A DNA stretch of 12,670 nt. Origin: a virus. Taxonomy: Duplodnaviria; Heunggongvirae; Uroviricota; Caudoviricetes. Location: the IMG/VR virus record IMGVR_UViG_2711768058_000009, positions 1 to 12,670 of that record; one strand, written 5' to 3'. The notes below the pieces were generated by a model that worked only from the letters and a program-made list of their open reading frames with translations, was not told the origin of the DNA and did no database searches. The position numbers and the translations under genes are program-made. Below, piece after piece: positions 1 to 12,058 of this stretch (position 1 is its first letter; every line of letters begins with the position of its first letter).

Positions 1-1287
1 TCATCGTCTCGCTCTGTGGGGCATGTATGGGACACTTTCAGTTAACTCCTTATTGAGCAGTTCTATCTGCCCGATATTGTTATCTTTCATCCATGCTCCG
101 TAAACATTGAAAACCATTTGGGCGTTTGCATGTCCCATCTGGTTTGCGATAAAGCTTGGATTAGCTCCCGCCGATAATGCCCAGCAGGCATAAGTATGCC
201 TGGACTGATAGGCTTTCCTGTGCCGTAGTCCCGCCCGTCTCAATGCCGATGCCCATGAGTCTCTGATGGAGTCTGCTTTGTAGTGGTGGCCTGCCTGCTG
301 GCATTTTTTCACCAGTTGCGGATTAAAAACAAATGTGCATTCATGTCTTACGGTGCGTCCGAACTCCCGAAGTTTGACGTCAATTTGATATTGAGTACCA
401 AATCTTGTCATTTCAGCCTGACTTTTCAGGGTATCAACGGCTGGTTGAACAAGATGAATAACACGATCTGTTCCCGCTTCGGTTTTTGGTAGAGTGAACT
501 CACCGAGTTTTGTATAATTACGACGGATAGTCATTGTTTTAGCTTTTAAATCAATATCCTCCCAGGCAAGAGATATCAGCTCACCATGACGAATGCCTGT
601 GTATACTGCTAAAGACCACAGGTTTTTTGTTTGTTGATGGTGGCAAGCATCAATAAAACGAATGAATTCGTCATGTGTGAGCGGATCTGGTTCTGTTCTT
701 GATCTTTTTAATGGTGTAAGACCGTTAAACGGGTTTGATTCTGTGTATCCGTTGTCAGCTGCAAATTGAAACATACCTGCAATTGTCGTCATGTAGTAAT
801 TAACTGTAACTACAGATCGCCCTTTGACAGGAGTTGTCTTGCCGTTCGAGAGATTGTGATACCCGGTCAATAAATCTTTCCTGATAAAGAGTAAATCTTC
901 TTTTGTTACAGATGAAGCCAGTCGATTTTCCCCTATACGAGGGAGCATGTTTCTCACCACAGATTGATACCGATTGAGCGCGTTACCACCTATCTCGATT
1001 TTCTTCAGATCCAGCCATTTTTCGGCAAGTGCCTTAATGGTTATCTCCCTTTTCCCCAGACCGAAGTGTTTCAGATTTGGAGACTCAGGGAACTGCGCAG
1101 CGTAGTCGAAATTCCCCATTCTGATTGCAAAACAAACTGAAGTCCTGAGTTCGCCTGCAATCTTCCGGTTTTTGGCTGTGTCAGGAATACCGAGGTTTTC
1201 TCTGACACGTTTGCCGTTATAGTGAAACCATATGCGGAGTGAGCCGCCATGGTTTTCAACGCCTGTTGGGTATGATGTGTTACTCAT
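1..1287 (-). CDS. int: Tyrosine-type site-specific integrase (phage integrase family), complete, 428 aa; the attachment site would lie just left of the window
   Basis: Full ORF with stop at 1-3. C-terminal region has the R...HxxR...Y catalytic pattern (e.g. RHTYACW). RBS GGGAGG 4 nt upstream of the ATG at 1287. Sits next to an excisionase-like gene. Confidence 0.9.
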   Translation of the reverse strand: MSNTSYPTGVENHGGSLRIWFHYNGKRVRENLGIPDTAKNRKIAGELRTSVCFAIRMGNFDYAAQFPESPNLKHFGLGKREITIKALAEKWLDLKKIEIGGNALNRYQSVVRNMLPRIGENRLASSVTKEDLLFIRKDLLTGYHNLSNGKTTPVKGRSVVTVNYYMTTIAGMFQFAADNGYTESNPFNGLTPLKRSRTEPDPLTHDEFIRFIDACHHQQTKNLWSLAVYTGIRHGELISLAWEDIDLKAKTMTIRRNYTKLGEFTLPKTEAGTDRVIHLVQPAVDTLKSQAEMTRFGTQYQIDVKLREFGRTVRHECTFVFNPQLVKKCQQAGHHYKADSIRDSWASALRRAGLRHRKAYQSRHTYACWALSAGANPSFIANQMGHANAQMVFNVYGAWMKDNNIGQIELLNKELTESVPYMPHRARR

Positions 1288-1320: not shown

Positions 1321-1575
1321 TTAACCGGAACTTGCATTTTTGGCACCTGGTTGTTTCTGGTTTTTTATCCACCGCATAATTGCATCTATGTTGTACAGGC
1401 ATTCACTGTTTGGTTTTGGCTCTCCATCCACAGAGAAGTGGATATATTCCCTTCCTAACATCCATGATGTTCTGCGTGCTCGCTCGATAGTGCCTGATTT
1501 TAATCCTGTTGCAGCAATTAAGATGCTTTCAGCGCACCATTCACTGGGTGTTATCTGATAGATAATTTGTTGCAT
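1321..1575 (-). CDS. xis: Excisionase-like small DNA-binding protein (Xis position), about 84 aa from the ATG at 1575; the track ORF starts at a TTG at 1590
   Basis: Small ORF immediately upstream of int on the same strand. Shows the xis-like pattern (ITPSEW...RR..W, basic patches). AAGG 7 nt upstream of the ATG at 1575. Confidence 0.6.
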   Translation of the reverse strand: MQQIIYQITPSEWCAESILIAATGLKSGTIERARRTSWMLGREYIHFSVDGEPKPNSECLYNIDAIMRWIKNQKQPGAKNASSG

Positions 1576-1632
1576 AGAATTGCCTTGCAACCGCCGCCAC
1601 TATAGCTGGTGGACGGCGATCAGGGTTGAACA

Positions 1633-4077
1633 TTAAAAATCAGCTTGACTCGGGATCAGTTTTTGCCAGATTGCTGACACGTATTTTGCCTGGTAACGGG
1701 CGTCATCAAGTGCATTATGGCGCTCACCTTCGAATGGAATAGTCGTTCTGGCATCGAAATCTATCACCAGTCCCAGAGCAACCATCGTTCGTACATCACG
1801 ATCGTTGTTGTAGCGCCACGGACAGGGGATCCCCTGTCGTTCATATGAACGGCGTAAAATTACGTTGTCGAAGTTGGCTCCATTTCCCCACACCTGAACA
1901 AAAAATTCACCGGAGTTTTCGGCGATAAACTCCCTGAACTGCAACAGCGCGTCATCCAACGGGATTTCATTGGTAAGAATGGCGGATTGTGCTTCGCGTG
2001 ACTGTTTCAGCCACCACTTAATGGTGTCCCGATCAATGACTCCGCCAGCAGTTTCCAGATCGATAGTCTTACTAAATTCCGGTCCCATATCTCCGGTTTG
2101 CGGATCGAAAAATATTGCACCTATTGAGATGATCGGGGCATCAGGATTTTTTCCCATGGTTTCAAGGTCGATCATTAGATGGTCACACGTCCTGCTGGTG
2201 GATGTGATTTCGTGATGACCGTTCACCTTAATTGGGTGATCTGCCGTCTCGCCAGTTTCATTATCGCTATCGTGATGCTGATTGCCGCCAGTGTTCTCCT
2301 TGTGTGGATGTTCAGCGCCTTCCATTTCCTCCGGATCATCTTTCTGAACTTCAACCTGATTCTCTTCATCGAATGTTTCCTGGTATGTTGTGTCGTCCAT
2401 CACCGCGCCACAGTCAGGACAGTTACCGCCGCTGGTCTGACCATAGGCGGTGCAAAATTTTTCCACTTCCTGTTGCGCTACTGGTTCAAGAAGTTTCGTT
2501 TCTGGCTCGTTTTGTCGCGCATTTGGGCTGTTTTGTTCTGCATTTTGGTCGTTCTGTTCCGTTTCTTGCTGGTTCTGGTTCACAGAATCGCGGGTTTCAA
2601 TCCCCTTCACCCATTTCGGATCATTCGGGTCGCTAATCCCTTCAACAAATTCTCCACGAGAAGCAGCCAGTAACTTGTCGGCATCAACAGGATTTTGGGG
2701 CGGAATGTTTTTCCGGGCTTCATGGAGTTCTGACCGCAGTTTCTGATATTTCGCATCAACAGAATTTACCTGTGACTGAGCATCCAGCGGCTGCGTGTCC
2801 TGATGATGTTCAGTTGCATCCGGTTCCACTGTTTCAGCCGTTGCCTGTTCATCTGCCATTGCGCAAGATGGTTGCGGTTTTTTTTCATCATCCTGTTTTT
2901 CTTCTTCTGTTACACGCTGCGGCATCGGGGCAGAGGAGCGACCGCAGGCAATATCCACGATTTCCGGATCAGGGTTGGCATGATCGGTTTCAGTCAGTAC
3001 TTTGTTCAGATATTCAGTGACGTGTGCGGGGATGACCTCGATCCCAATTGGTGCTTCTTTTACGGACGCAACCACGATGGCGCGGGAATAATCCAGCCCG
3101 CCAGGCATGGTGATGAATTTGTCGCGGAAAACAGAAAAGGGCGATTTATTTTCAGCGATAATTTCCTCGATACGTTTAGCGTGTGCCGGATGAAGGTTAT
3201 AAATGTCCACGTCCATTGAACGAGCTAGTACGCCAGTGGCTACGTCGCGCGCCAGTGACGTCAGATCGTGAACGAAACCTTCGCCGCGATCAGTGAGGTT
3301 CCCGCCGCCAGCATTAGCGCCGGAAGCCGTGCGCGTGATGCGTGAAATACGATTTCCTTTCATCCACTCTTTTGTCAGCAGACCGCGATCGGTGTAGTCA
3401 GCGTTCAGGTATGATTCGATAAAAGAGGTCATCAGTCCCAGGTCTGAATTTACTGGGGCTGGGAAAACTTTGTCAGTGTCTCGCACCAGTTTGTATAAAT
3501 CCCGAATTTCCAGCGGCCCCAGTTGAGCTGCTTTATTTGAAATGGCACGGGTTGTAACCGTAGGGAGTTCTTCATCCAGTGCACTATGCAATGCCCGAAG
3601 TTCTTCCCGTGAAACGTGCGTTACCGGTTTCTCGCTGCCGTGTTGTGCAAGCCAGCGAACGGGCAGTTCCTGACCAGAAATCGGCAGGAGCATACCATCC
3701 TCAATCTCTGTCATATCTTCGCCGTTGACGTTGGTATTGTCAGTGCTGGCTGGTTTGTGCTGCGAAGAGGAAGAGGGCGCGCTAAATATCATTGTGATGC
3801 CATCTTCCCCGCCTTTTTCATATCGATTGCAGAATTCGGTATCAAACACGCCTTCCGGTGGAAGGTCATTCACAACGGGTAAATGGACACGGACGGGTTT
3901 TTTAAAGTCGTCTTCATCATAATCGTTGTCATCCATTGCAGTAATGCAGCGGGAGATAGCAACAGATAATTTTTTTGCTGTAGTCCAGTAAAAACCACCT
4001 TTAATTCCCAGGCGTTTTCTGACTTTGTCATTTTTTGCTTCGCAATATAGTGCAAATTCTTCTTTATCAGTGCTCAT
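1633..4077 (-). CDS. Large 814-aa protein: N-terminal domain of unknown function, acidic Q/N/E/D-rich linker with one CxxC, C-terminal DEDDh (DnaQ-like) 3'-5' exonuclease domain
   Basis: Long uninterrupted ORF. The three exonuclease motifs are visible in the C-terminal 190 aa: [26 protein letters not shown] 7 nt upstream of the ATG at 4077. Occupies the slot between xis and the early-left genes where lambdoid phages carry exo/bet or recE/recT. Confidence 0.85.
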
Positions 4078-4191: not shown

Positions 4192-4353
4192 TTACAGAGA
4201 TACTTTTTTTAACGGGAGGCATTCGCCGGAAAATTTTTGCTCATCTCTTGCCTGAAGGCAGGTTGCCTTACTGTCATAAATTCCGGTAATCATATTCTGT
4301 GACTCACCTGCTGTAAGAAAAACCGTCATCACCAGTGCAAATGCCGAAGTCAT
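4192..4353 (-). CDS. Small hypothetical protein, 53 aa, with a hydrophobic signal-peptide-like N-terminus (MTSAFALVMTVFLTAG...)
   Basis: Not in the ORF track (under 60 aa). The ATG at 4353 overlaps the TGA of the upstream ORF (ATGA, translational coupling). GGAGA 6 nt upstream. Confidence 0.35.
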   Translation of the reverse strand: MTSAFALVMTVFLTAGESQNMITGIYDSKATCLQARDEQKFSGECLPLKKVSL

Positions 4354-4538
4354 CGCTGTTCTCCAAAAATGCCAAGTTGAAGAAGAGCAATTCTTGAAAG
4401 TATGGAATTATCATTCAGAAGATAAGGCTCATATTTCCTCATATTAATGGCATCATCAGTGAAGTCTTTATTACTGAGCTGAATGCCAATATTAAAACAA
4501 CCTTCAGACGTATTAACGTTTGGTAATAACGTTTCCAT
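4350..4538 (-). CDS. Small hypothetical protein, 62 aa
   Basis: ORF with GAGG 8 nt upstream of the ATG at 4538. Its stop overlaps the start of the next small ORF. AT-rich composition suggests an acquired moron. Confidence 0.4.
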   Translation of the reverse strand: METLLPNVNTSEGCFNIGIQLSNKDFTDDAINMRKYEPYLLNDNSILSRIALLQLGIFGEQR

Positions 4539-4713
4539 TATCGCGTCCTCAACAATGAATTTTGTGATGCAGTGCCTGGTGCCTCCAGGTGACGTTAGCC
4601 AGTTAACAATTAACGCCGGATACAGAGCATTCCCGTTACGCCCGTAAAAGACCGCTTGTTTTAACTGTTCCGCGTGCGCTGAGCCGCATTCACCGCATCA
4701 CAAAATTCACTTT

Positions 4714-4766
4714 AAAAAAGGCGGCAGAGCAGTTACGGAGTAAAACTGGTACCGCCAAACGTCACC
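4714..4766 (-). terminator. Candidate intrinsic terminator for leftward transcription: GGCGGUA/UGCCGCC stem followed by U6
   Basis: Minus-strand RNA would read GGCGGUACC...CUGCCGCC then UUUUUU (plus-strand A6 at 4714-4719). The loop is long, so stability is uncertain. Confidence 0.35.
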
Positions 4767-4905
4767 AGAAAATGGATAACAGAGGGCGTTGCAGCGTGGT
4801 TGTCTCTTAAGCGTATGGTCAACCTGACAACCCGGTGTACTCAACGGGGAAGGAATAACCACGCCATACTTACCGCCGCGCCATTTCGCGGATTGCCACA
4901 ACCGG

Positions 4906-4967
4906 AAGCGCACGGTCGAATTAAATTTAACGACACCGTACAGTGAGACGAACTTCACCGTGCGCTT
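4906..4967. repeat. Perfect 11-bp inverted repeat (AAGCGCACGGT / ACCGTGCGCTT) around a 40-nt loop that contains the palindrome TTAAATTTAA
   Basis: Arms read directly at 4906-4916 and 4957-4967. Lies in a roughly 470-bp stretch with no convincing ORF on either strand. Confidence 0.6.
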
Positions 4968-5009
4968 TCGTGTTGTGTGCCTGCTTTTAACCACGTCAGG
5001 CGAGGTGGT

Positions 5010-5038
5010 ATCCTTAAAATCACCACTGTTTTAAGGAT
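5010..5038. promoter_or_regulatory. 10-bp perfect inverted repeat ATCCTTAAAA-N9-TTTTAAGGAT, operator-like, just upstream of the plus-strand membrane ORF
   Basis: Read directly from the sequence. The stem is AT-rich, so it is more likely a protein-binding site than a terminator. It overlaps the stop of the minus ORF and sits 11 nt before the ATG at 5049. Confidence 0.4.
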
Positions 5039-5615
5039 TCATTAAGCAATGTCGCAACCACCAATAAATCCGCTTAAGAACATGAAAATTGATTACTGGT
5101 ATAAAGCGCTTACAGTTGTTGGCGCTGCGTTGTTTGTCTTTAATGGAACGTCTTTTTTTGACAGATATCCCGTTGTTCCATTGGCTTTTTTGTCCGCCGG
5201 CATCTTTTTTATTGGTTTGGGAGAGTGGATTAACCACCCTCTCAAAGTGAGATTTATTGGTCCCGGAGTCTGGGCTCGCGGATATAACCGTTCTTCGTGC
5301 GCACTCGGTATCATCTTCGATATACTTGGTTGTTGCCTGATTGTTACAGGAGTCGTCAAGTTCTTCTGATGTAAAACCGCAAATGGGGCACGCAGAGGGA
5401 ATTTTGAAAAGCGTTTCACCGGGTTCCAGAACAAAATTTTCTGCGGTCTGATTTTGCTTCTCATATTTGTGCTCCGCATCATTGCGAGAGCACATTCTTA
5501 TTCTGAGCGCCTGTTTAAACTCACTGAAGCTGAGGGCTTCTTCGCCTTCGGCAAGGCCTTCGAAGTATTCTTCGTAAGCCTTTTCCATGATTGTGTCGAA
5601 ATCCATATCACTCAT
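5031..5615 (-). CDS. Hypothetical protein; N-terminal 80 aa acidic and helical-looking, C-terminal part low-complexity; true extent uncertain
   Basis: ORF open from the ATG at 5615 to the stop at 5031. The N-terminal part (MSDMDFDTIMEKAYEEYFEGLAEGEE...) looks protein-like. The C-terminal part is exactly codon-antisense to the membrane ORF and K/N/Q/R-rich. The ATG overlaps the stop of the upstream 51-aa ORF. Confidence 0.4.
   Translation of the reverse strand: MSDMDFDTIMEKAYEEYFEGLAEGEEALSFSEFKQALRIRMCSRNDAEHKYEKQNQTAENFVLEPGETLFKIPSACPICGFTSEELDDSCNNQATTKYIEDDTECARRTVISASPDSGTNKSHFERVVNPLSQTNKKDAGGQKSQWNNGISVKKRRSIKDKQRSANNCKRFIPVINFHVLKRIYWWLRHCLMNP
5049..5369 (+). CDS. Small integral membrane protein, 106 aa, about 3 predicted transmembrane helices; candidate superinfection-exclusion or abortive-infection moron
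   Basis: Three hydrophobic segments of about 20 aa separated by charged loops. AT-rich. Transcribed opposite to the surrounding leftward operon, as accessory exclusion genes often are. Lies entirely antisense to the minus ORF 5031..5615, so only one may be real. Confidence 0.45.
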   Translation: MSQPPINPLKNMKIDYWYKALTVVGAALFVFNGTSFFDRYPVVPLAFLSAGIFFIGLGEWINHPLKVRFIGPGVWARGYNRSSCALGIIFDILGCCLIVTGVVKFF

Positions 5616-5763
5616 CTGAGTTTCTTTCCAGCCAGCGACGCGCACCAGCTTCGGTTTTAAACGTTTTGCTTCTGGTATACGTCATGGCGGTGAATGTGCC
5701 GTCCTGGTTGGGGAACACACCGCATACCAGAGATTCGTTGTTGCCAAGATTGAGCGTATCCAT
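5608..5763 (-). CDS. Small hypothetical protein, 51 aa, first gene of the leftward early operon
   Basis: Not in the ORF track. GAGG 7 nt upstream of the ATG at 5763. Stop overlaps the next gene's start (ATGAGTGA). Sequence looks protein-like (…TFKTEAGARRWLERNSDE). Confidence 0.4.
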   Translation of the reverse strand: MDTLNLGNNESLVCGVFPNQDGTFTAMTYTRSKTFKTEAGARRWLERNSDE

Positions 5764-5938
5764 GTTGACCTCATTTCCCCTTAACGCCGGGTAGCGGAAC
5801 TTAAAAACCTGCTGCGCTGCTATTCAAAGTTATCCCGCCGTCATGTTCATACGCCTCGGGCTGGCTACTTAACCCCTGACCACTGCCGGGTAACTCGAGG
5901 TATTGCCCTGCATTCTGTGGGGCGGAGTGGGTGGTAGG

Positions 5939-5988
5939 TATATAATGTACTTTTCGTTCACTGTTGTAAAGTACTTTGAGTACATTTT
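5939..5988 (-). promoter_or_regulatory. pL-like leftward promoter (TTTACA -17- CATTAT on the minus strand) overlapped by operator-like GTAC-core motifs
   Basis: Motifs ATGTACT (5945-5951), AGTACT (5970-5975) and CTTTGAGTACAT (5974-5985). The last is the exact reverse complement of ATGTACTCAAAG found right of the repressor gene. Confidence 0.4.
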
Positions 5989-6060
5989 GTGTGTAAAAAA
6001 ATGAGATGGGATAAAGTGAAGCACAAACCCGGAGGGTGATGCTACCGGATTTATGCTGGT

Positions 6061-6480
6061 TTAAGAGGCTTTTTGTTTTTTCTTTCGTGCTAACTCTTCG
6101 TAAATTGCATTGTACTTCTGTTTTTTCTCCTCAAGAGTTTTTAAAAGTTCATCTGTCTCACTGTCAGGGAGCTCGTCCAGAAGGTCAATGATGATTTTTT
6201 GTCTTGGATTTAACTCCTGATAGAAACGTACCTGTCCACCTTCTTCAGTATCCTCTCCCAAAAGATAGGTTGGTGTTGTTCCTATGAGTGTTGCTAATTC
6301 CCTTAATTTCTCTCGGCGAGGAATTGTTTCGCCATTAAACCATTTGCTAACCGCTTTTGGTGTTAATTTCATTCGACGGGCAATTTCTGCCTGCCTTCCA
6401 TGTTGTTCATAACCAGCGTTATCACAGGCTAGCGCAAGCCTGCTGGCGAACTCTTTACGCGCTTTATCTTCATGAACCAT
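6061..6480 (-). CDS. Prophage repressor, 139 aa: N-terminal XRE-family helix-turn-helix, C-terminal coiled-coil-like region, no S24 peptidase domain (non-cleavable, RacR-like)
   Basis: HTH signature (QAEIARRMKLTPKAVSKWFNGETIP). Divergent from a Cro-like gene. No Shine-Dalgarno sequence before the ATG, and a CTGACA -17- TATCAT promoter places the transcription start at about the ATG (leaderless, like lambda cI from pRM). Confidence 0.8.
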   Translation of the reverse strand: MVHEDKARKEFASRLALACDNAGYEQHGRQAEIARRMKLTPKAVSKWFNGETIPRREKLRELATLIGTTPTYLLGEDTEEGGQVRFYQELNPRQKIIIDLLDELPDSETDELLKTLEEKKQKYNAIYEELARKKKQKAS

Positions 6481-11727: not shown

Positions 11728-11789
11728 AACTGCGGGTGCTTGAGGCTATCTGTCTCAGGCATGAACACCAAAAGGCAGATAGAGAAAAG

Positions 11790-11855
11790 CCCCAGTTAAC
11801 ATTACGCGTCCTGCAAGACGCTTAACATTAATCTGAGGCCATATCTATGCGACAC
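11790..11855 (-). ncRNA. Predicted Sok-like antisense RNA; extent approximate
   Basis: Minus-strand promoter TTGACC (plus 11884-11889) -16- GCTAAT (plus 11862-11867) would fire leftward across the leader ORF's RBS and ATG (11835-11849), as in canonical hok/sok loci. Confidence 0.3.
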
Positions 11856-11906
11856 ATAGAGATTAGCCTCTTACGGACCGAAAGGTCAAGGAGAAGCAGG
11901 CTATGA
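11847..11906 (+). CDS. Short mok-like leader ORF, 19 codons, ending in an ATGA overlap with the hok start
   Basis: GAGG 8 nt upstream of the ATG at 11847. Stop TGA at 11904-11906 overlaps the hok ATG at 11903-11905. No long mok frame with an ATG/GTG/TTG start was found overlapping hok. Confidence 0.35.
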   Translation: MRHIEISLLRTERSRRSRL

Positions 11907-12058
11907 AGCAGCAAAAGGCGATGTTAATCGCCCTGATCGTCATCTGTTTAACCGTCATAGTGACGGCACTGGTAACGAGGAAAGACCTCTGCGAGGTACG
12001 AATCCGAACCGGCCAGACGGAGGTCGCTGTCTTCACAGCTTACGAACCTGAGGAGTAA
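11903..12058 (+). CDS. hok: Hok/Gef-family type I toxin, 51 aa (HokD/RelF-like membrane peptide)
   Basis: Translation MKQQKAMLIALIVICLTVIVTALVTRKDLCEVRIRTGQTEVAVFTAYEPEE is a hallmark Hok-family sequence, with an upstream leader ORF and antisense promoter. Confidence 0.9.
   Translation: MKQQKAMLIALIVICLTVIVTALVTRKDLCEVRIRTGQTEVAVFTAYEPEE

Follow-up and report, generated by a model that had tools for sequence, protein, structure and literature searches.

Long coding overlaps between opposite strands are disputed in bacteria and phages, and most antisense candidates are young open reading frames (ORFs) that occur in few taxa and are supported by expression only. Described cases include the antisense pairs of E. 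coli O157:H7 and Pseudomonas, namely ano/ECs2385, three EDL933 pairs and olg1/olg2 (PMC5960689, PMC9927249, PMC8850804). Prophages are also known to carry SieB-type systems, which are expressed from the prophage and stop a superinfecting phage in mid-cycle (PMC10883804), and the Qin prophage contains the dicB/DicF operon, with the gene order ydfA-ydfB-ydfC-dicF-dicB-ydfD (PMC5069750). Here we analyse a 12,670-nucleotide stretch of viral DNA (IMG/VR record IMGVR_UViG_2711768058_000009, hereafter the window), which comprises the left arm and immunity region of a lambdoid E. coli prophage and contains a probable antisense gene pair: a plus-strand gene for a three-helix membrane protein and a longer minus-strand ORF that reads through it on the same codons. 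A first-pass annotation made from the sequence alone had placed this locus between the repressor and the early-left genes. Its position is in fact inside a dicB/DicF early-left operon, with ydfA on one side and dicF on the other.

The locus is systematically misannotated. The Prokaryotic Genome Annotation Pipeline (PGAP) usually reports a 'ydfB, incomplete' pseudogene and calls neither ORF; occasionally it calls a 191-residue minus ORF or, in other records, the 106-residue plus ORF. Phage annotators have called the wrong strand, the minus ORF being the one recorded in phage HannyBb, in mEp390 (gp39) and in phrog_35040. A literature search covering ydfB/dicF antisense genes, antisense-overlapping membrane genes of prophages, and mEp390 returned nothing on this locus.

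The plus-strand membrane-protein family

Kyte-Doolittle windows of the plus product show clear hydrophobic segments at residues ~40–61 and 81–106 and a weaker, marginal one at ~19–36. The AlphaFold model (predicted local distance difference test, pLDDT, 88.5; predicted template modelling score, pTM, 0.75) contains helices at residues 17–32, 42–62 and 85–105 and a beta-hairpin at residues 66–78. The first-pass description of a small three-helix membrane protein is borne out by hydropathy and by the model. According to the positive-inside rule, the N-terminus and the loop of residues 63–84, with the conserved polar motifs (DYWYK, GEWxNHP and the hairpin), would face the cytoplasm, and the product is predicted to be an inner-membrane protein with a cytoplasmic beta-hairpin.

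A protein search with the plus product returned 62 relatives, nearly all of 100–111 residues and with identity down to 35%, from Scandinavium, Yersinia, Herminiimonas, Reinekea and many metagenomes among others; no Pfam domain was found in any of the 62. Species-representative genomes contain further members in Burkholderia, Shewanella, Martelella, Arcobacter (three copies), Desulfobacteraceae and others, and in a profile search of 1.84 billion representatives 488 clusters (50% identity) passed a threshold of E ≤ 1e-3 and 219 passed E ≤ 1e-10. The residues Y16, W17, Y18, K19, A20, G56, E59, W60, N62, H63, G87 and G94 are invariant in the alignment, and the family can be recognised by the signature motifs DYWYKA and GLGEWINHP. 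Searches of the plus protein against Pfam (E ≤ 0.1) gave a spurious TMEM238 match only, and those against PHROG, NCBIfam and PADLOC gave no match. The plus ORF belongs to an unannotated family of membrane proteins, ~100–110 residues long with three helices and invariant motifs, which amounts to several hundred clusters and recurs beside phage repressors.

The membrane gene can be aligned codon for codon and without gaps across four enteric lineages. Nucleotide identity among these is 0.59–0.75, 0.78–0.83 and 0.42–0.54 at plus codon positions 1, 2 and 3, and amino-acid identity is higher for the plus protein (52–68%) than for the minus protein (32–46%) in every pair. Within the overlap, omega across 37 E. 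coli haplotypes is ~0.33 in the plus frame and ~0.78 in the minus frame. Distant members have stops in the antisense register (5–6 in Herminiimonas and Reinekea, up to 17 in low-GC members), which shows that the membrane gene is independent of the minus ORF. Purifying selection of the ordinary kind acts on it, and we regard it as almost certainly a real gene. Full-length homologues of the minus protein, which had been proposed as evidence against the plus gene, do exist; they are the same DNA read backwards and have no bearing on it.

The antisense frame and its N-terminal domain

Both triplet partitions begin at coordinates divisible by 3, so the codons of the two ORFs lie in exact antisense register, as the first-pass annotation had claimed. 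Across the membrane gene this register is free of stops, whereas the other two antisense frames contain 1 and 10. The same is true of all four enteric lineages, which have no TTA, CTA or TCA in the membrane gene yet freely use ATA, GTA, ACA, AGA and similar codons. With K-12 codon usage, a stop-free frame has a chance of 7–10% per lineage and of 5e-5 jointly for the four; with the prophage's own codon usage the figures are ~2% (1–2%) per lineage and 9e-8 jointly.

Upstream of the overlap, the minus ORF encodes a conserved N-terminal mini-domain (hereafter the N-domain). In the four enteric lineages the peptide (E)PGE.L..IP.ECPxCGF.SEEL is kept in the minus frame just beyond the overlap, and the variation there falls at minus-frame third positions (CCC/CCT/CCA, TGC/TGT, GGT/GGC, TTT/TTC); in the window, the CPICGF motif is coded at 5390–5373 (−), just outside the overlap. 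Environmental lineages share the N-domain (PTGWKFTPLHKNCPQCGFDLSQQF, PPGFKFTPLHVKCPRCGCDLSQEF and KFTPLYKRCPKCGCD), and a version free of cysteines, PGSV.(I/V)D.E....L.GW.LE.F, is found in phage mEp390 and in a Martelella-labelled contig. The minus starts lie 32–37 codons before the overlap and have Shine-Dalgarno (SD)-like sequences in six lineages, and the ORFs are 142–159 residues long and stop 1–15 codons beyond the plus start codon. A profile of nine minus proteins identified further 151-residue members in Enterobacter and Serratia; the best-conserved part of these gp39-like proteins is the N-terminus, YEFFERL..PGSV.IDRE.STVTL.GW.LEEF, and the DNA of three such relatives (Enterobacter, Serratia and a further prophage) has an open frame and an intact membrane gene in exact antisense register. 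The N-domain and the start of the minus gene are thus conserved. Family scans of the minus protein matched near-identical PHROGs only (phrog_35040 and 2061, the latter being YdfB).

In the window the minus ORF is a chimera of YdfB residues 1–34 and the cassette's own ORF of ~154 residues. An internal ATG at 5495–5493 (MCSRND...), just within the cassette and 42 codons ahead of the overlap, is the probable ancestral start of the cassette's minus ORF, so the YdfB head would be a secondary in-frame fusion. Only E. coli has this fusion; in other lineages the ORF is self-contained, with ~150 residues. The minus ORF start overlaps the ydfA stop as ATGAGTGA, an arrangement that is predicted to couple its translation to that of ydfA. 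The N-terminus that had earlier been called genuinely protein-like is mostly this YdfB fusion (the first 34 residues); the conserved part of the minus protein is the CPICGF segment by the overlap.

We then considered a wider set of 196 loci from viral, genome and metagenome scans, which form 53 clusters (lineages) at 80% identity; the taxon labels of some contigs from metagenome-assembled genomes are possibly unreliable. The frame is open in all ten lineages with the N-domain (GC content at third codon positions, GC3, 0.36–0.56) and in 2 of the 26 lineages that lack it at GC3 ≤ 0.52, the rest of which have 2–17 stops. In a neighbour-joining tree all the motif-bearing lineages fall into a single clade, within which closed sub-lineages are also nested. 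Same-clade relatives that lost the N-domain have 2–11 stops, and two closed loci (L170 and L016) hold only a remnant of the domain (KLKPGF.FT), the CPxCG part being lost. This pattern would fit one origin and several later losses.

Several observations limit this evidence. The association between N-domain and open frame has a Fisher p of 2.6e-7, which overstates independence because the positive lineages are one clade, and the motif classes were defined after inspection of the data; codon choice between the positive lineages is nevertheless saturated despite the shared clade. A minus-frame stop is present in 6 of 127 E. coli loci, produced by A85S or F53L in the plus protein, and frameshifted E. 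coli copies exist, so decaying prophages, at least, can dispense with the tail. Stop events within E. coli polymorphism (1.4 expected, 0 seen) are too few for power. On the other side, stop avoidance tracks a conserved domain outside the overlap across many lineages, and this evolutionary signal is strong. We conclude that the minus frame is very probably kept open by selection. The first-pass annotation had asked whether the locus is a true antisense pair or one frame is a shadow, which was the right question; the wide plus family and the openness of the minus frame where the N-domain is present favour a true pair, with a minus ORF that appears to be more than a plain shadow.

The cassette, its contexts and the upstream element

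The pair is carried by a cassette (see the table) that is absent from K-12 Qin, which at this site has 396 bp with the 3' end of ydfB and ydfC. Homology to K-12 Qin resumes on both sides, at 87% over 4434–4988 (the dicF/dicB side) and at 93.6% over 5801–5506 (ydfA and ydfB codons 1–34; blastn). The region is present in 797 of 5426 complete E. coli genomes (~15%), and the same module is found between other flanks in Scandinavium, Yersinia and P22-like prophages. Its frequency in E. coli, together with the two sequenced phages mEp390 and HannyBb, makes this a tractable system, and the window carries a variant of the dicB/DicF operon with an antisense gene between promoter and dicF.

P22-like, Yersinia and Scandinavium prophages carry the cassette between a cI-type repressor and the early-left genes, of which the long ORF is the first; the membrane gene converges on cI. 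In mEp390 and the three Enterobacter- or Serratia-type prophages it is the rightward operon that contains the long ORF (gp39), with cro on one side and cII on the other. In all the phage contexts the long ORF runs along an early lytic operon with the membrane gene opposed to it, and in Burkholderia phage Bcep176 the family member gp33 is opposed to all its neighbours. A survey of neighbours at 27 loci found that only cI-like repressors and cII-like genes recur, the cI-like genes also in Arcobacter; the neighbours in environmental contigs are unrelated accessory genes.

According to the mEp390 record, gp39 is 'similar to Bcep176 gp33', although the former (L121 3956–4411) corresponds to the antisense ORF of the family and the latter (L123 3384–3848) to its sense, membrane-protein ORF; the likely cause of this mislabel is confusion between the two overlapping frames. 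The Arcobacter sp. Pygsuia-1 chromosome has three identical membrane-gene copies with identical flanks (L026, L027 and L028), each near a cI-like repressor and with the antisense frame closed by 10 stops, which are probably one prophage in triplicate. Members outside the clade also occur in non-phage contexts (Herminiimonas, L005 6397–7179, and Reinekea, L006): one is beside a DUF5677 protein after an AsmA-family gene, and another is in a run of small, unannotated ORFs that ends in a ParD-like gene.

The conserved non-coding element ahead of the plus start codon (see the table) contains a perfect 10-bp palindrome that ends 10 nucleotides before the ATG at 5049 and whose right arm holds both the SD sequence of the membrane gene and the minus stop codon. 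The palindrome noted in the first-pass annotation is present, perfect and the only one of its kind in the window, but 10% of shuffles yield such a repeat (mean 0.125) and by itself it is not significant. Its weight rests instead on its conservation in five enteric lineages, in which the hairpin is kept with compensatory changes in the inner stem (AAAA/TTTT, AAAGC/GCTTT, AAAGG/CCTTT and GAAG/CTTC). The ~75-nucleotide consensus of the five, GTGCCTG.CTTTT..CCAC.TCAGGC..GTGGTATCCT.AAA...CTTT.AGGAT, can fold two hairpins, the first by CCAC..GTGG or GCCTG..CAGGC pairing and the second by the palindrome. It folds on either strand, and the G-U versus C-A pairs of the five sequences favour neither; the element may also act as a site in the DNA. 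In mEp390 an equivalent AAGGA precedes a TTG start. The invariant TGGTATCCT may be the promoter of the membrane gene, a promoter/operator reading of the element in which transcription would start near 5021 and give a messenger with a free SD sequence, whereas transcripts reading through from upstream would sequester it. The terminator scan found only a weak terminator-like site at 5546–5565 (+).

A structured RNA gene recurs just downstream of the cassette: tRNA-Gly or tRNA-Asn in P22-like prophages and DicF in the window. The phage tRNA genes follow the long ORF on its strand (L012 5802–5875, −; L013 3952–4033, −), and the hairpin element between the cassette ORF and the structured RNA might be a processing signal. 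In E. coli A34 (L004) PGAP annotates a 'tRNA-OTHER' at 1199–1276 (−), ~225 bp from the cassette and at about the place of DicF; ARAGORN finds no tRNA there. The window has no tRNA genes, and DicF was the only family matched by Rfam over 4600–5700 at a permissive threshold. The minus-strand ORF 4707–4994 matches phrog_8854 (3.5e-26) over its first ~51 codons (4842–4994), a region that corresponds to the long untranslated dicF leader described in K-12, and continues into DicF. A 51-residue ORF at 5869–6024 (−), between the repressor and ydfA, has no match in any library. In an E. coli locus of 100% identity (L002) this position is taken by a RelE/ParE toxin and its partner gene, which identifies it as a variable insertion slot.

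Features of the antisense locus and of the rest of the window (positions on the 12,670-nucleotide stretch)
Feature	Position	Strand	Evidence
Membrane gene, 106 residues, three helices, ATG start	5049-5369	+	ORF and translation, homologues, codon-position pattern, AlphaFold
Long antisense ORF	5031-5645	-	GTG at 5645; ATG at 5615 gives 194 residues; PGAP ATG at 5606 gives 191 residues; stop TAA 5033-5031
N-domain, non-overlapped segment	5370-5495	-	Minus-frame coding signature, four lineages
YdfB-derived 5' end of the minus ORF, outside the cassette	5506-5615	-	Homology to K-12 ydfB; PGAP 'ydfB, incomplete'
517-bp cassette, absent from K-12 Qin	4989-5505		blastn against K-12 Qin
Conserved non-coding element ahead of the membrane gene and directly behind the minus stop	4975-5048		Five enteric lineages
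Candidate extended -10, TGGTATCCT, with TTTAAC 17 nucleotides upstream	5006-5014	+	Invariant in five lineages; below scanner threshold
Perfect 10-bp inverted repeat, ATCCTTAAAA-N9-TTTTAAGGAT	arms 5010-5019, 5029-5038		Sequence
SD sequence AAGGA, 11 nucleotides before the ATG at 5049	5033-5037	+	Sequence
Integrase	1-1287	-	
Excisionase	1321-1590	-	
Exonuclease	1633-4077	-	
ydfD	4192-4353	-	
dicB	4350-4538	-	
DicF small RNA, downstream of the long minus ORF in the same operon	4719-4770	-	Rfam RF00039, 70.5 bits
ydfA (DUF1391), upstream of the long minus ORF, early-left operon	5608-5763	-	Pfam DUF1391, 1.8e-29
DicA-like helix-turn-helix repressor	6061-6480	-	
cro-like gene, YdaT, replication genes	from 6488 onward	+	
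hok/sok-type locus	11734-12058	+	Rfam sok, 106.7 bits at 11734-11905; Hok-like 51-residue ORF 11903-12058 (MKQQKAMLIALIVICLTVIVTALVTRKDLCEVRIRTGQTEVAVFTAYEPEE)

Readings of the antisense pair and comparison with known systems

The explanation that we consider somewhat probable, from the sequence patterns above, is that of a mobile 0.5-kb cassette with two opposite-strand genes on the same codons, the plus gene of which would be expressed in the lysogen and silenced on induction. The minus gene would start ~35 codons beyond the end of the membrane gene, encode the N-domain (PG...CPxCGF) and read through the whole membrane gene, and the selected property of its tail would be uninterrupted translation. 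Translation would keep the antisense transcript full-length, Rho-protected and ribosome-coupled across the membrane gene and its ribosome-binding site. The membrane protein would be made in the absence of early lytic transcription; once the early operon becomes active, or the minus promoter of the cassette itself where the cassette is alone, ribosomes would cross the membrane gene and the N-domain protein would be made, while transcriptional collision and RNA pairing would shut off sense expression (i.e. the two products would be mutually exclusive). Such an either/or expression switch seems to us about evenly balanced. More tentatively, the locus may be an ancient, horizontally moving and fully overlapping pair in which the minus ribosome traffic and the N-domain act as a built-in either/or switch for a membrane function tied to lysogeny. 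If so, the long ORF would be the first documented frame conserved for being translated rather than for its encoded product, and temperate phages would tie an exclusion or toxic membrane function to lysogeny and erase it on induction.

A simpler idea, that the open frame is a mere translational bridge against Rho polarity on dicF/dicB, was rejected as a general explanation because the long ORF is the only minus-strand gene in the environmental contigs; it may survive in the modified form above, in which translation keeps the antisense transcript full-length. Of the possible roles of the membrane protein, the most likely would be that of a lysogen-expressed, membrane-acting exclusion or abortive-infection protein, possibly toxic, and sieB-like in place and orientation while unrelated to SieB, although we hold this assignment to be less probable than not. 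Class I holins are proteins of ~100 residues with three transmembrane domains and a charged C-terminal tail, encoded in the lysis cassette by the endolysin. The size and helix count of the plus protein fit a class I holin, but its C-terminus (...VVKFF) lacks a charged tail, its gene is in the immunity/early region and it has no holin matches, and this candidate was rejected.

Further observations weigh against the favoured explanation. The consensus promoter scan found no plus-strand promoter at threshold; the plus protein shows no homology to SieB, Rex, exclusion, abortive-infection, holin or toxin families; and the single CPxCG knuckle of the N-domain is an incomplete zinc site, which the mEp390-type variant, without cysteines, lacks altogether. 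In environmental contigs, moreover, the membrane gene points the same way as its neighbours and the only antisense gene is the long ORF, so the logic of lysogeny and lysis cannot be the whole story.

One alternative, which we consider unlikely, is dual coding at the protein level, in which the ~110-residue hydrophilic, basic tail would be a functional disordered domain, for example an RNA- or DNA-binding or N-like regulator, that needs its full length and little sequence specificity. The frame is indeed open over the full length, and the ORF takes the position of lambda N, first after the repressor, in the P22-like, Yersinia and Scandinavium prophages. The overlapped segment is hydrophilic (K+R 20, D+E 12, 65% polar or small residues, mean hydropathy −1.0), with a net charge of +8, but this composition is dictated by the antisense of hydrophobic codons. 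The AlphaFold model of the minus protein is near-wholly disordered (pLDDT 50.9, pTM 0.17) except for a predicted C-terminal helix (residues 137–152, pLDDT up to 87). A change in the plus protein is silent in the minus frame more often than expected (11 of 19 such changes against 5.6, p = 0.009), a signal confounded by the conservative nature of first-position changes in transmembrane codons. In a comparison of Scandinavium (L011) with a P22-like prophage (L013), third-position identity in the membrane gene is 0.46 and codons are identical at 38% of identical residues, and the neighbouring ordinary genes have 0.32–0.45 and 32–44%; these figures are alike, so there is no extra synonymous constraint. 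The low minus identity across lineages mirrors the conservation of the plus protein, and no homology of the minus protein to N or any other family was found in Pfam and the other family libraries. Selection demonstrably acts on the absence of stops, the start and the N-domain, and none is detectable on the sequence of the tail.

An addiction module akin to a toxin-antitoxin system, in which the membrane protein would be the toxin and the antisense transcript, the N-domain protein or both the antidote of a selfish stabilising cassette, is in our view also improbable. The cassette is a stand-alone mobile two-component unit that lacks any further conserved partner and occurs in prophages and variable regions, and the window already holds a hok/sok locus. 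Type I systems such as hok/sok likewise combine a membrane-protein gene, an antisense transcript that is here completely complementary over the ribosome-binding site, and an SD-sequestering hairpin upstream, as in type I toxin messengers. Type I toxins are, however, shorter than ~60 residues with a single helix, far below the 106 residues and three helices found here, and their antitoxin is a short non-coding RNA, whereas the antisense partner here is a long coding RNA with a conserved ORF of ~150 codons, a start and an SD sequence. Members outside the clade lack an antisense partner, which argues against any intrinsic need for an antidote.

The plain shadow, in which function resides in the membrane gene alone, the openness of the minus frame follows from its register and the long ORF is an accident of the ydfB fusion, is less probable again. 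Exact antisense is the register in which shadow frames classically arise, being the least likely to hold stops; the minus overlap is near neutral and its product predicted to be disordered; and some E. coli copies have a minus-frame stop and PGAP usually makes no call. Against this, every motif-bearing lineage has zero stops at the low per-lineage chances given above, openness tracks a domain outside the overlap, the start codon and SD are kept at a conserved distance while same-clade relatives without the domain have accumulated stops, and the ORF is self-contained wherever the E. coli-only fusion is absent. The converse, that the minus ORF is the sole real gene and the membrane protein its hydrophobic shadow, has in its favour the greater length of that ORF and its being the one called in the phage records, and is practically untenable given that plus third positions are the most variable, that plus identity exceeds minus identity in every pair, that plus homologues exist where the antisense frame has 5–17 stops, and that AlphaFold gives a confident model of the plus protein but not of the minus protein.

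Returning to the favoured cassette with two genes on the same codons, its closest positional counterpart is lambda sieB (also in Rac and P22), which sits by the first early-left gene and reads against the early operon: sieB (34482–35036, +) is tail-to-tail with N (35037–35438, −) and reads against pL, so the positional analogy drawn in the first-pass annotation is sound. SieB has no sequence or family relation to the plus protein, however, and lambda sieB and N abut without overlap, whereas here the early gene runs through the whole membrane gene. The likeness to the Qin operon lies in ydfA, the 5' end of ydfB, DicF, dicB and ydfD, all in K-12 order, and in the DicA-like repressor; the difference is the cassette, which replaces the 3' end of ydfB and ydfC and fuses ydfB in frame to the long ORF. 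The antisense pairs of E. coli O157:H7 and Pseudomonas are likewise made up of two opposite-strand coding ORFs, one of which is dropped by gene finders or PGAP, and they are described as novel ORFs embedded in known genes and supported mainly by expression. At the present locus it is instead the embedded ORF that is old and widespread and the enclosing ORF that is clade-specific, the support is evolutionary, and the pair is kept down to ~38% protein identity and moves as a cassette.

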